Source: a virus
Taxonomy: Duplodnaviria > Heunggongvirae > Uroviricota > Caudoviricetes
Reading direction: 5' to 3' (one strand)
DNA: 52,541 nucleotides
Virus record (IMG/VR): IMGVR_UViG_2531839449_000043
Part shown: positions 42,401 to 51,400 of the stretch, in pieces
How positions within the stretch are numbered: the stretch's first letter is position 1
Layout: each line of letters begins with the position of its first letter
Position numbers: made by a program

Positions 42401-45400
42401 CGCGCATAAACCTGTAACAGAATACGGCAGTGCGCACCCTGATGATCAAACCGTGCTGGCGATACCCGTTGATAAGGCTATCGCTCAGGTCAGGGATCGC
42501 AGCAAATTTGCAGAGATATCGAAAAATTATGGTTATTTTATGCCGAAGCAGCAGGGACTTTCTCTGAAAGAGCTTCAGAAGGGGGCCAGCAACGTAGCGG
42601 CGGACGCGATCAAGAATGGCGGTAATGCTCAGGCTGCGGTGGATGAATATTATGCTGCGACTGGTTCACAACCGCATCAACAGAAAATTCAGCAACAAAA
42701 ACTTCAGCAACAGGTTATCAACTGGGCGGGAGATGATCCTGATAAGCTGTCATTTGCCAGAAATGTAGCGGCCCGTCAGCCTGAAATGCTGGAACCTCAG
42801 AATCAGAAATTGCTGGAGAACGGGTATGCGAATTTTCTCCGTATTCAAAAGGCCAGGGGGGAACAGGCCAGAGATGAAAGTGCTTCATCTGCATCTCAGT
42901 TTATCCGTGGACTGAAACAGAATTACGCCCAGTAATTCACGATATTCCATTAATACCATTTCCTGATGCCCGGCCATTGTGCCGGGTTTTTTTATGGAGT
43001 CTGTATGGCCTATTCAGAGGAACAGCGTCCTGAGGCGCAACTCGGTAACCAGAATCGTAACAGCCTGAACATTCAGCAACCCGGCGAAACTGACAGCTAT
43101 GAAGCATTTTTCTCTGATCCGAATCGCTGGAAGGATAACAGTACGTCGTTCAGCCTGGGCGATGTATTGCCAACAATGGGTAAAGGTTTCGCCCAGTCCG
43201 TCCGGGGAACAGGGGAAATGGCCCGTGGACTCGGTGATGCGATGATTCAGAGCCCGGTAAAAACAGGGGCGCGTATTTTAAATGAGTTCAGCCGTATGGG
43301 GCTGCCGGGTGTCGCAACTGTGCAGGATATTTTTGCCGGTGGCAGCAGGGGGGCTGATGAGGTCATCGATACCCTGCCTGATGGCAAAAACGCGGTTACT
43401 GATACTGTCGGTAAAGGTCTGAAGGCAACCGGTAAGGCTGTCAGTGATGGTGCCAAAGCCACTGATGAATGGCTGACCGGTAAGATGTCGCCGGGTGCAG
43501 TTCGTGCGCTGAATACGCCGATGACCGAAGGCTATAATGATTCTGCGGTCTGGGTGGCGAAGGGTGTAAACCTGATTGGTGCGCTTGTACCTGATATGGT
43601 TGCTGGCGGTGTGGCTAGAAAGGTGGGTGATGTCACACTGCGAAAAATGCTGACCGCCGGGCTGGAGAAAAAATACATCGCGGCAGGGATGCAGCCGGAA
43701 AGAGCCACGGCACTGGCAGCAGAAGCTGTCGATAAAAAAATGCCGGATTTATTCCAGGCGGGCCTGATCACCCATTCCACTGTAAGTGCACAGGGGCAGA
43801 GTGCAATGGCGGCAGCAGATGCTGTTCTTAATGCTGATTACTCTGAGCTGGCGCAGTCACCGAAATTTCAGCAGACGTTTTTGTCCATTGACGCCGACCC
43901 GCAGCACGCACAGCTTACTGATCGCCAGAAAATGGATCTGGCAAAAGAGCGTGTTGCCGATGAGGTGCGCGCGCAGCTGGCAACCGATCCTGAATTGCTG
44001 GCTGTGAATGCCATGGCGGCAAAACTGGGTGACGCACAACTGTTTAATCTGGTGACACGAGGCACAGCGAAGACCGTTAAAAGCGGCATTGTCAGAAATG
44101 CCACGGAACAGGGGGCGATTAATGCGGCGCAGGGCGGCTATTCACGCTATCAGGAAAACACGGCATTGCGTGAGACCGCCGGAATGGGTGTGTCACCGTG
44201 GGAGGGCGTGGCTGACGCAACGATCGAAGGTGCAGCCTTTGGTGCTGCGATGGGGGCTCCATTCGGTGCGGTTGCCGGATATCGTGGCAGACGTCAGGCC
44301 GCAGAAGAAACCGCCATGCGTGATGCTGAAACCGTGCAGCAGGACGACGCAGCCCCGCAACCAGAATCTGTTGATCCGGTGGCGCAGCAGCGTGAATCCA
44401 TGCAGGGCATGAATCGCGAGCAGCTTCTGGAGCAGTATGCTGATGCGGATATGGCAACAGAGGGTGACGCATCCGCAGCTCATCGCCGGGAAGCTGCCAG
44501 CCAGTTGTTGAATGAACTGGACGAACAGACGAAGCGACAGGCTGTGATGAATGAGCTGAAGGCGAAGCCGCGTTCTGAACTGCTTGAGGAATACCGCAGA
44601 CTCAGCCAGAAAGAGGGGCGCACCGAGACTGAAGAACAACAGTTTCAGGCAATACGAGAAGTCATTCGCCCACAACAGGAAGTGACGCCGGAAGCACAGT
44701 CACAGCCTGAAAATGCGGAGGATGGTAACGGGAGCATTTACCCGACGGTGCGGTTCCGGGACCCGAATGAAGTCCGCATTGAAATTAACGGGAATGGTGC
44801 GTCCAGACCAGCGGAACGCATTGAGAAGGTGCGCCCGGACAACCGTTATTTCACGGATGAGAAAAGCGCCATGGGGAGTGATGTTTTCCGTAATGCCGCC
44901 GCCACCGGCCTGAAACCGTCCGTAGTGAAGAAAGGCGAGAATCAGTATGCCGTTGAAATGGATAATCCTGCGTTCTCTGAAGATGTGGCAACGGAAACCA
45001 TTAACACCCTGGCTGACGGAGAGCGTATTGCTGATGCTGACCCGATGGAGCAGCCCGCGTTCATGCGTGACCCGCGATTCCGTGGTTTCACGGGGGATGA
45101 TACGGAGGTACAGGCCCGCCTTGCCCGTGGCAACGCGCCGACGGCAGAGGAGCTTGTACGTTCACAGATGGCTGAAGGTGATGCCGGTCCGACAGCACAG
45201 GAGTTAACTGAGCGTCCACGCCTGCCCGCTCCCGGCGATATTCATCCCGGACAGGGATATCCGTTACCGGGAGAAGTGGCGCGTACGCCGGATGAAAATC
45301 AGGCCGGACGTGGTGGTCGTTTTACCACAACCGGTGAGGTTAAGGGCCAGAGTTTCCAGAAAGGACAAGCTCCGGCACCGGAAAACGCCGCTGGTCGCCA

Positions 45401-48400: not shown

Positions 48401-51400
48401 GGTACACATGAAGGCTGTCCGGTCGCGTCTGGAAATCAACAAGGTAGCTTCTGTTTACGGTACAGAAAATGGAAAAAAACTGAAGAGTATGGAAATGACC
48501 GGGTTAACGTTGTACCGGAGAGAAAAATTAAGCCGCGATAACCTTCTGCACAGAGGGCTCCAATTGCCCAAAGGGGAACATTCTTATCGCGGCTCTGCGG
48601 ATAAAATACTCTATCCTGAAGATATTCGCAAGGGGCCGTATTACTCCCGTACCAGCAGTCTGACACCGGAAGAGACAATTGCATCGCGTTTTGTGCGCCA
48701 GATGCAGGATAAATTCCAGGTGCTGAAAGCTGTTCAGGAGAATATCCGTAAAACTGGCGGCAAAGTGGACGACAGTAACAACGCTTATATGGCGGAAGAA
48801 CTCTTCCACGGGAAGGCGGAAAACGACCTGAACGTGATGAAGGAGCGCTACGTTCAGCCACTGGCTAAATTACTGGCGGACTACAAAATTGCGCAGGCCG
48901 ATCTGGATGAGTACCTCTACGCCCGTCACGCGCCGGAACGTAACGCGCATATCGCGAAAATCAACCCGAAAATGCCGGACGGCGGTTCGGGGATGACCAA
49001 CGCGGAAGCGGCGGAAATCATGCAGCGTGTACGTAACAGTGGCAAACAGGCACAGTATGACCGTCTGGCAGGGATTATTGACGATATGCTGGCCCGTCGC
49101 CGTGAGCTTATCCGTGAGGCCGGACTTGAAGAGAACGGTGTGGTGGATGCCTGGCAGAACGCCTACCGTTACTACGTTCCCCTGAAAGGTCAGGATGTTG
49201 ACGGTGTGGTGTCACTGCCCCGTACAGGTAAGGGCTTCACCATCGGCGGACGTGAAAGCAGGCAGGCCATGGGGCGTGCATCCCGGGCACAGTCTCCGTC
49301 CACTCAGGCGATACAGGACCTGAGCGAATCGCTGATCCGCCATCGCAAAAACGAAGTGGGTAACGCCTTCCTGAAACTGGTGCAGGATAATCCCGACAAG
49401 GATTACTGGCAGGTATTCACCGATGACAGACCGGATACCATGCGGACGATTGCAGAGCGCAAGGACCAGGAAACTGGTGAAACCATTCGCGAAGTTGTCG
49501 AACGCCCTGTACCGATGGCAATGATGGCAGACCGGTACTTCACCACCAAAAAGAACGGCAAAACGTACTACATCAAACTCCATGATCCGCGCCTGATGCG
49601 TGCGATGAAGAGTATGGGACCGGAAACCAGCAATGCCTTTGTTCGTACGCTGGGGAAAGTTAACCGCTTCCTGGCAACGGTGAACACGTCGTATAACCCG
49701 GAATTCCTGGTCAGTAACTTCATCCGTGACGTGCAGACGGCGGTGATGAACCTGAAGGCGGAGCAGGGAAGGAGCGACGGTAAACTGAAAGGGCTGGATA
49801 ACTTATCCGCCCTGGCTGTGGTGAAAGACAGCCGTTCTGCCATGTCAGCCGTATACGCCAGTCTGCGTGGTAAAACCCTCACGGGAAAAGGTGCACAGTG
49901 GCAGAAGGTGTGGAAAGAGTTTGTTGAGGACGGAGGGAAAACCGGCTGGTTTAACATGGGTGACCTTGAAGGCCAGCAGAAGGAAATGGATCGCCTTGTC
50001 TCACTGGCGAAGGGGGGATGGAAAGGCCAGAGTATCGGTGCATGGAATTCGTTCCTTAACCTTGTCGAGGATGCCAACGGTGCGGTTGAAAACGCTCTGC
50101 GTCTTTCTGCCTATAAGCACGCCCGTGATGCCGGTTTGTCACGCCAGCAGGCGGCGTCTCTTGCCAAAAACATGACGGTGAACTTTAACCGTCGTGGTGA
50201 GCAGGGGGCGCTGATGAATTCGCTGTACATGTTCGCCAACGCCAGCATTCAGGGAACGGCAAATCTGGTGAGAACGCTCGGACATCTTAATGGTGAGGGA
50301 CCTTTACTGGAGCGCCTTCGCTGGAAGAATCTGAATGTTCCGCAGAAAATCGCGCTTGCCGCTGTGGGAGCAGGTTATCTGCTTGGCTCGCTTAACCGCA
50401 GCGTGGCGGGTGAGGATGATGACGGGGTTAACTGGTATGACAAGGTGCCGTCTCATGTGAAAGAGCGTAACCTCGTCATTATGAAATCGGTGTTCGGGGG
50501 CAAGGCCGGAGAGTACTGGAGTATTCCTCTGCCTTACGGGTACAACGTTTTCTTCCTGCTCGGGCATACTGCTGAAGGTGTGGCGGCGGGTGACCTGACG
50601 GCGTCCCGTGCTGCCGGTAATGTTGGTGGTGGTGTGCTTGGTGCATTCAGCCCGATTGGCAGTGAGACGTCGGAAACACTGTCCGGGGCATTGCTGAAAA
50701 ATGCAGCGCCGACCATTCTGCGTCCGTTTGCGAACCTTGCCATGAATGAAAACTTCATGGGGGCGCAGATTTACCAGGAGAACATGCCGTTTGGTACACC
50801 AAAACCTGACAGCCAGCTGGGAAGACGTTCAACGCCAGAAGCGTACAAGGCGTTTGCATCCTGGCTGAATGCGTTCTCAGGTGGCAGCCAGTACCGTCCC
50901 GGCGCGGTGGATATCACACCGGAATCGCTGAAATTCTGGATTGACTATATCTCCGGAGGGACAGGGCGCTTCATTTCCAAAACCACGGATGCGGCGGTGA
51001 AATCGCTGAATGGTATTGATATACCGGAACAGCAGGTGCCCTTCCTGGGGAAAATTTCGGGGGAGGTGATGCCGTATGCAGACCAGCAGAAGATGTACGA
51101 CCGGATGACAGAGATTGCGCAGTATCACGCAGAGCTGAAGAGTCTGACCGGTGCAGAAAGAACGGCGTTCATTGACGAGAACAACGGAAAATTGTCGATG
51201 AACGGGCTTATGCAGGATACCCGGAAGAGACTGAAGGATTTGCGTAAACAGCGTGATGCCATTTACGCCGACAGTACTCTCAGTCTGGCGCAACAGTCGG
51301 CGATGGTGAAATCGGTAGAGCGGGATATGAAAATTGCCGTGGATCGGTTTAACCGCGAGTACAACAAAAAAGTGGGAGTGGATTAACAGAAATGGCCCCG

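Follow-up and report, generated by a model that had tools for sequence, protein, structure and literature searches.

At the end of the late operon in IMGVR_UViG_2531839449_000043, a 52,541-nucleotide stretch of Caudoviricetes DNA that we analyzed as a whole (the window), lies a single open reading frame (ORF) that encodes a giant protein without cysteine. The initial annotation placed this plus-strand ORF correctly at 43005-51386 but gave its product as 2794 residues, a count that includes the stop; the true length is 2793. Along its full length, the protein shares 99.9% identity with the L0134 product of phage 933W and with the product of the same gene in VT2-Sakai and dozens of other Shiga toxin (Stx) phages; identity to vb_24B_48 (gp47) of phage phi24B is 97%. 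RefSeq names the product "LPD5" or "LPD38 domain-containing protein". Near-identical DNA was found in 427 of 5426 complete E. coli genomes (~8%), and, as 423 of these 427 carry it at full length, a decaying gene can be ruled out. We propose that the product is an encapsidated ejection protein in which constant terminal modules, which we call the chassis, flank an exchangeable cargo. The gene and its parts are as follows.

43005-51386, plus strand: giant ORF, 2793 aa and stop, cysteine-free (from translation; orthologue of 933W L0134 and phi24B vb_24B_48/gp47)
43005-44324, plus strand: N-terminal chassis module (N-module), aa 1-440, with a conserved core at about aa 150-440 (HMMER, N4 profile match)
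44229-44279, plus strand: glycine zipper G-x3-G-x3-G-x3-G-x3-G, aa 409-425, followed by basic residues; candidate membrane-inserting helix
44325-45746, plus strand: acidic, Pro- and Gln-rich low-complexity linker, aa 441-914, probably disordered (composition; no family match)
45747-46604, plus strand: start of the cassette (IEDFGEEIKGAAK motif region) and LPD5, Pfam aa 1051-1200 (Pfam, alignments)
46548-47315, plus strand: zincin 1, of the CLCA_X or phage metallopeptidase type, aa 1182-1437, with HExxH at 46854-46868 (NCBIfam match, alignments)
47427-47999, plus strand: putative zincin 2, aa ~1475-1665, with HExxH at 47655-47669 (motif conservation, predicted topology)
48252-48521, plus strand: MuF_C domain, aa 1750-1839 (Pfam)
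48657-51383, plus strand: C-terminal chassis module (C-module), aa ~1885-2793, ~910 aa, mostly helical (homologues, structure model)
50337-50405, plus strand: hydrophobic helix in the C-module, aa 2445-2467
50430-51047, plus strand: LPD38 in the C-module, aa 2476-2681 (Pfam)

Four domains are recognized by Pfam, all above their cut-offs: LPD5 at aa 1051-1200 (6.5e-45), LPD1 at aa 1361-1440 (5e-24), MuF_C at aa 1750-1839 (1e-17) and LPD38 at aa 2476-2681 (1e-47). All four were defined for the "polyvalent proteins" of phages and conjugative elements (Iyer, Burroughs, Anand, de Souza and Aravind, 2017, PMC5512222), and the giant protein has the traits of that class: several unrelated domains, LPD types among them, in one polypeptide that is encoded among late or virion genes. 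Besides LPD5, LPD1, LPD38 and MuF-C/PBECR, it shares with the proteins of that survey a phage-type zincin metallopeptidase (MPTase). The fit to large polyvalent proteins that was first suspected is thus supported by the Pfam domains, together with the packaging of the 97% identical orthologue in virions. The initial annotation also saw here a candidate for uncharacterized biology, but the protein itself is not new, as it is present in every Stx-phage record and its class was described in 2017. The gene is already known, having long been catalogued in Stx phages, assigned to a class since 2017 and reported as encoding a packaged protein in 2026. What remains of interest is the biochemistry, the fold of the C-module, the logic of chassis and cargo, and the link to phage N4.

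Packaging in the virion and the central cassette

A recent preprint on phi24B, which combines cryo-electron microscopy (cryo-EM) with proteomics (2026, bioRxiv 10.64898/2026.04.10.717836), reports that gp47 is present in purified virions and absent from the map, and proposes that it is an encapsidated ejection protein. In the available part of the proteome data of the preprint, only the capsid protein, with 17,998 spectral matches, exceeds gp47, with 10,962, and in the unfractionated sample gp47 gives 746 matches compared to 101 for the portal protein. Its counts peak in the top gel slices, above the slice in which the portal protein peaks. The gp47 peptides in these data derive from every domain, from residues 36-58 through 2795-2806 of the 2811-residue frame, which suggests that the whole polypeptide with both of its ends is in the phi24B particle. 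Virion packaging, as the initial annotation had anticipated, is therefore documented for a 97% identical orthologue, which by spectral counts is the second most abundant protein of purified phi24B virions. Because the phage is a podovirus, and because the resolved tail does not contain the protein, we rejected a role as a tape measure or as a purely structural part of the tail. Most of the protein from virions is found in the uppermost part of the gel, and processing, if any, would therefore probably follow ejection. The virion RNA polymerase (vRNAP) of N4 is likewise packaged unprocessed (Iyer et al., 2017).

The two HExxH motifs are where they had been placed initially, AHEWFH at aa 1284 (46854-46868) and RHEIIHHAMEH at aa 1551 (47655-47669), 267 residues apart; the number of HExxH motifs expected by chance from the His and Glu composition of the protein itself is 0.035. 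Over aa 1182-1437, around the first motif, the protein matches the NCBIfam model NF041907, "CLCA_X family protein", with an E value of 9e-44, and the alignment takes in model positions 3-245 of 250. At 149.8 bits, the match does not reach the cut-off of 260 curated for whole proteins, which leaves it outside strict NCBIfam membership, although the homology of zincin 1 to the CLCA_X family is clear. CLCA_X is a zincin-like family found mostly on phages and plasmids, and is a distant relative of the self-cleaving metalloprotease domain of CLCA (Lenart et al., 2013, PMC3650047). The HExxH regions, which the initial annotation left for profile searches to decide, therefore do include a match to a peptidase fold, that to CLCA_X over motif 1.

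Across 43 homologues at 31-47% identity (alignment A1), motif 1 takes the form L[AG]HEW[FWLM]H..D and is invariant or nearly so, with H1284, E1285, H1288, D1291, H1263 and E1382 each at least 90% conserved. In a closer set of 13 sequences, 47-58% identical to the giant protein (alignment A3), H1263, H1284, E1285, H1288, D1291, E1375 and E1382 are invariant, and E1265 is also listed among the invariant residues of zincin 1. H1263 lies 21 residues N-terminal of motif 1, and a helix with the two glutamates, EMAARAFE (E1375, E1382), lies ~90 residues C-terminal of it; the predicted order is a helix, three strands, the HExxH helix and then the Glu helix. A conserved His that ends strand 2 and an Asp three residues past HExxH are the signature of phage-type MPTases (Iyer et al., 2017), and the residue pattern of zincin 1 is exactly that of this subtype. 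For CLCA_X, the motif was written as HExxHxxxD (Lenart et al., 2013), which differs from the giant protein and all of its homologues, where the Asp is three residues past the second His. LPD1, by sequence, is the C-terminal half of zincin 1 and not a separate domain, because it is inside the CLCA_X match and holds the Glu helix; in the 2017 survey, in contrast, LPD1 is a separate domain of unknown function. On the structure model, a zincin fold is indicated for the region that holds both motifs, and is probable for zincin 1. A Foldseek search of the Protein Data Bank (PDB) with the model of aa 1040-1700 gave a best E value of 0.09. Hidden Markov model (HMM) searches of PDB sequences returned only coiled-coil or low-complexity noise, whether made with the profile of zincin 1, zincin 2 or the C-module, with the whole cassette or with the whole protein.

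In many homologues the second motif, HExxH or HExxxH, recurs ~230 residues past motif 1, and its H, E and H are the sole invariant columns among 11 homologues of only 16-25% identity. The predicted topology around it is a helix, three strands, the HExxH helix and an acidic helix, in which the position of the Glu is ambiguous. Compared to zincin 1, the region shows weak similarity (hhalign E 0.002, probability 14%). Motif 2 thus appears to head a second conserved, zincin-like domain that has no model in any family library.

Farther downstream, the MuF_C match (PF18819) scores 64-70 bits against a cut-off of 27.6. MuF-C has been classed as a PBECR RNase-like fold, and the MuF-C of phage Mu itself is inactive (Iyer et al., 2017). 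The phi24B preprint labels MuF-C as a peptidoglycan-degrading metallopeptidase, a label that looks wrong given this classification; the HExxH domains, at aa 1182-1437 and ~1475-1665, are upstream of MuF_C.

LPD5, zincin 1 and zincin 2 also occur together outside of giant proteins, as a free-standing gene of ~870 residues. One such protein, of 872 aa and with 7 cysteines, is encoded at 8001-10619 of ENA contig NODE_437 (locus L003). The same locus carries the genes of a conjugative element with a type IV secretion system, namely TrbL, SLT, an M23 peptidase, a MobA/MobL relaxase, Fic and TnpV.

Terminal modules and the link to N4

By sequence comparison, the cargo of the giant protein is swappable and the two modules that flank it are constant. 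When we used the N-module (approximately the first 450 residues) as a query, a word-indexed homologue search returned enterobacterial relatives only, and full HMMER, across 1.8 billion representative proteins, was needed to reach further. This search found the module at the N-terminus of ~60 other giants of 2000-4665 aa. About half of these have the C-module at their other end, and ~20 contain the LPD5-zincin cassette; the cargo of others is methyltransferase/helicase ("DarB-like") or endolysin-like. The module ends in the glycine zipper, and such a zipper is present within the first 560 aa of 63 of the 64 family members. The stretch that follows, at about aa 440-910, corresponds to the acidic and Pro-rich low-complexity linkers of the initial annotation.

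The N-module profile also matches N4 gp50, the vRNAP, at aa 230-445 with an E value of 3e-13 (38-40 bits). As controls, we shuffled the N-terminal region of N4 gp50 1000 times globally and 1000 times locally; the highest score was 5.3 bits, and the reversed sequence gave -22.7. In the reciprocal direction, N4 residues 200-480 match ten family members with E < 1e-3, always in their N-terminal ~370 residues. On these profile comparisons, we conclude that the N-module is homologous to the injection region of the N4 vRNAP. That N4 region is needed for injection of the protein, and earlier searches with it found nothing beyond N4-like phages (Iyer et al., 2017). Our results differ in that the N-module ties the family of giants to N4, and as far as we could find, the link between N4 and the giants of Stx phages is unreported in the literature. 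A direct BLASTP comparison between the giant protein and N4 gp50 was not significant. Neither Pfam nor NCBIfam gave an RNA polymerase (RNAP) family for the giant protein that would correspond to a single-subunit polymerase core, and a weak match to phrog_2206 (E 0.006) covers aa 235-623, upstream of where such a core would be expected.

The resemblance to N4 gp50 and to gp71 of phage DEV (Lokareddy et al., 2024, PMC11445570) extends beyond the homologous N-terminal region, since these proteins are also giant, cysteine-free, encapsidated and invisible by cryo-EM, and have an internal HExxH zincin. Gene order is similar as well, with a gene for 150 aa, then one for 421-644 aa and then the giant, both here and in the three-gene ejection operon of the Schitoviridae (gp52, gp51 and gp50 in N4), the small and mid-sized genes being cysteine-free. 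The systems differ in that an RNAP core is present in N4 gp50 and DEV gp71 but not here, in that the C-module is unrelated by sequence, and in that the phage studied here is temperate and lambdoid with a GP4-like tail. In DEV, the C-terminal part of gp71 binds the tunnel protein gp72.

The C-module is predicted with a pLDDT of 82 and a pTM of 0.78, and homologue alignments show many invariant polar motifs. It forms the end of proteins whose cargo differs, including a methyltransferase, ART-PolyVal, LPD3, inorganic pyrophosphatase (InPase) and GGDEF. Relatives are found in Vibrio phages (41% identity), Ralstonia GP4-like phages (27%), Burkholderia phages and the Bacillus megaterium phages Page and Pascal (22%). 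The Methanosarcina virus MetMV (MK170447.1, 40102-42492) encodes a relative with 28% identity over 88% of the module, which implies that the C-module is very old or has moved between domains of life. No solved structural relative of the C-module was found, and searches of the N4 and T7 ejection proteins with the profiles of the C-module, LPD5 and zincin 1 gave no match. The glycine-rich hydrophobic segment that the initial annotation described near the C-terminus is present at aa 2445-2467, with more such segments at aa 181-208 and 407-425. Phage PTXU04 depends for efficient infection on a related LPD38 protein of 2198 aa, which is more in line with an essential delivery role than with a dispensable accessory one.

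The lack of cysteine is unlikely to be a matter of composition. At the frequency in the other late ORFs of the window (0.78%), 0 cysteines in 2793 residues has a probability of ~3e-10, and ~76 TGY codons would be expected in the gene from base composition. Across the family, we counted 7 cysteines in 181,853 residues (0.004%), and 9 in 87,031 residues of C-module homologues. In the free-standing homologues of the cassette, cysteine content is an ordinary 0.43%, which suggests that the avoidance follows the phage delivery route and not the domains. The ejection proteins gp15 and gp16 of T7 and gp50, gp51 and gp52 of N4 also have no cysteine, and cysteine suppression, a published hallmark of ejected podovirus proteins, is seen across the Schitoviridae ejection operon and has been related to passage through the oxidizing periplasm (Lokareddy et al., 2024).

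The avoidance extends to the neighbors of the giant gene, as 40946-51386 holds four consecutive cysteine-free ORFs (150, 83, 421 and 2793 aa), preceded by two ORFs with 2 and 3 cysteines.

40946-42935, plus strand: three cysteine-free ORFs, of 150 aa, 83 aa (with a Gly-zipper) and 421 aa; candidate partner ejection proteins (cysteine count, phi24B proteome)

Orthologues of all three are detected in phi24B virions in the available part of the proteome data, the 421-aa one strongly and the 83-aa one with only 13 spectral matches; the annotated homologue of the 83-aa ORF is set aside by the authors of the preprint as a likely contaminant. The 83-aa ORF (41408-41659) ends in a long hydrophobic glycine-zipper segment, GTGIGTGAAIGASVGGPVGAVAGAVIGGIAGSLF, and is called a "bacteriocin" in the 933W annotation. 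It could instead be a small, pore-forming partner of the ejection proteins.

T7, another short-tailed phage, offers a functional parallel. Its gp14, gp15 and gp16 are carried in the head, leave it ahead of the DNA and build a channel across the envelope, and gp15 and gp16 share with the giant protein the lack of cysteine. T7 uses three proteins with a lytic transglycosylase domain, which differs from the one giant without such a domain here; profile searches of all modules against gp14-16 gave E values of 0.057 or higher, and Pfam found no SLT domain in the giant protein.

Probable role in ejection and alternative roles

We consider it probable that the giant is an encapsidated ejection protein, a chassis that delivers a self-processing cassette of zincin and RNase-like effectors. 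Once the tail needle is released, the protein would pass out of the capsid by way of the tail channel; a sequence free of cysteine and a probably disordered linker of 470 residues would allow it to do so in an extended state. Two helices would insert into the envelope, the glycine-zipper one in the N-module and the hydrophobic one in the C-module, and the terminal modules, together with the small cysteine-free proteins encoded upstream, could form or extend a conduit for the DNA. The central cassette, consisting of LPD5, zincin 1, zincin 2 and the PBECR RNase-like domain, would reach the cytoplasm. There, the zincins may cut the polyprotein or host proteins, and the effector domains could then act early in infection, the RNase-like one on RNA.

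Several observations weigh against this proposal. Packaging is known from the orthologue, in a preprint only, and ejection into cells has never been observed. The presence of the virion protein mainly at the top of the gel means that autoprocessing, if any, is not extensive before ejection. Zincin 2 has no sequence match in Pfam, NCBIfam or the PDB, and its support consists of the motif and the predicted topology; its similarity to the MPTase region of N4 is marginal, at 9.5 bits, a score equalled by 1 of 2000 shuffles, with the HExxH motifs unaligned. With a Kyte-Doolittle hydropathy of 1.1-1.4 in a 19-residue window, the hydrophobic segments, which are also short, are no more than moderately hydrophobic, and no similarity could be detected between the C-module and known conduit or ejection proteins. 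Finally, BLASTP comparisons of the 421-aa neighbor with N4 gp51 and of the 150-aa neighbor with N4 gp52 were not significant.

Among the alternatives, the one that fares best, which we nevertheless regard as unlikely, is that the giant is a dispensable, injected anti-defense effector like P1 DarB or ArdC, which shields the incoming DNA from restriction or other immunity and is not part of the ejection machinery. The polyvalent class itself, the methyltransferase and helicase cargo of relatives on the same chassis, and the pairing of a DNA-binding domain with a zincin in ArdC-type proteins (Iyer et al., 2017) are all in keeping with such a role, as is a weak PHROG match to "DarB-like antirestriction" (phrog_10089). 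This match, however, is confined to aa 2351-2681, the LPD38 region, and Pfam and PHROG found neither the methyltransferase nor the helicase module of a P1 DarB-type protein; the PADLOC defense models gave no match to the giant protein, and other libraries were empty as well. In addition, a core function is suggested by the terminal modules, which account for about half of the protein and are conserved despite very different cargo in phages of Vibrio, Ralstonia and Bacillus and in a virus of archaea. The homology of the N-module to an injection domain and the need for one relative in the efficient infection of a laboratory host also argue against a dispensable effector. Overall, the evidence points to an essential role in genome ejection at least as strongly as to an anti-defense purpose.

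A second alternative, put forward in the phi24B preprint and to our minds also improbable, ranking just after the first, is a purely structural trans-envelope conduit whose metallopeptidase domain digests peptidoglycan to reach the inner membrane. The abundance of the protein in virions and its absence from the map, the short tail of phi24B that needs extension, the requirement for a related LPD38 giant in efficient infection, and the lack of cysteine shared with T7 gp15 and gp16 would all be explained by a conduit. The digestion of peptidoglycan is harder to reconcile with the domains, as the metallopeptidase of the preprint is MuF-C, which is an RNase-like PBECR domain according to Iyer et al. 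(2017), and the HExxH domains lie elsewhere. Furthermore, the zincin cassette occupies a swappable cargo slot that in other giants holds a methyltransferase, ART, GGDEF, InPase or helicase, which act in the cytoplasm, and the same cassette exists as a gene by itself in a conjugative element, which encodes its own wall hydrolases of the SLT and M23 types. A MuF-type, phage-borne polymorphic toxin, or a factor by which a lysogen gains against competitors, is very improbable: MuF_C is present, and MuF-linked toxin families have been described on temperate phages (PMC5576092), but the protein has no N-terminal MuF head-morphogenesis domain, its gene is a late-operon gene with no adjacent immunity gene, and its product is in virions.

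A broader and tentative idea, which we put forward as a possibility that may well not hold, is that the giants of Stx, GP4-like, Vibrio and Bacillus podophages and the N4-type vRNAPs share one ancient ejection chassis, formed by an N-module with a zipper and a C-module, with exchangeable cargo between them. The cargo in Stx phages would then be a double-zincin and RNase cassette that was borrowed from conjugative elements, frees itself after entry and disables host RNA or proteins, and the C-module would be a trans-envelope conduit with a fold that has no solved relative.

Stx phages spread Shiga toxin genes among E. coli. The phi24B authors themselves ask how a short-tailed phage moves its DNA through the envelope and what role a 300-kDa protein, packed in the head with the DNA, has on arrival. 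A conserved chassis with replaceable cargo, an N-module related to the N4 injection domain and a relocated position for the zincin domains make these questions easier to approach by targeted mutagenesis, and the chassis might serve to deliver foreign proteins from the phage head.

Start codon, prophage end and the late operon

The uninterrupted frame on the plus strand spans 42966-51386 and offers two candidate starts, the ATG at 43005 and one at 42966, 13 codons farther 5', which is the start in the 933W RefSeq and phi24B annotations. Two features bear on the choice.

42968-42994, plus strand: terminator-like hairpin GCCCGGC-cattgt-GCCGGGT with T-run (dG -18.6 kcal/mol, z -2.5)
42996-43007, plus strand: Shine-Dalgarno GGAG, 5-nt spacer and ATG of the preferred start (read from the sequence)

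The stem of the hairpin (42968-42987) and the T-run after it are between the upstream gene and the giant gene and overlap the ATG at 42966. We consider the ATG at 43005 the better-supported start, as GGAG (42996-42999) sits 5 nt 5' of it, and the ATG at 42966 is at the foot of the hairpin and has no Shine-Dalgarno; the longer ORF was rejected for this poor context. A start at 42966 would add 13 residues, two of them cysteines, to the otherwise cysteine-free protein. No peptide from this 13-aa extension is found in the available part of the phi24B proteome file.

The late structural operon runs through genes for terminase, portal, capsid and tail and closes with the giant gene, which is likewise last in the same late structural gene order in 933W (L0134), VT2-Sakai (Sp5) and phi24B (gp47). 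In all 5426 complete E. coli genomes, the 1155 bases 3' of the giant gene's stop have a match at the yfdC locus, which makes this gene the last of the prophage before the chromosome; the core gene yfdC adjoins, in agreement with the chromosomal junction as first annotated. Within this flank (51387-52541), the prophage ends at most 222 nt past the stop of the giant gene and abuts yfdC. In 933W, the same gene is followed instead by ~4.2 kb of accessory genes (hok/sok, a ygiW-like gene and an anti-repressor), and thus the right-end module varies between these prophages.

Farther upstream, G+C content is 0.60 and AT skew is strong at 32001-34000, in the tail fiber gene (31907-33844), the phi24B orthologue of which is annotated with collagen-like repeats.

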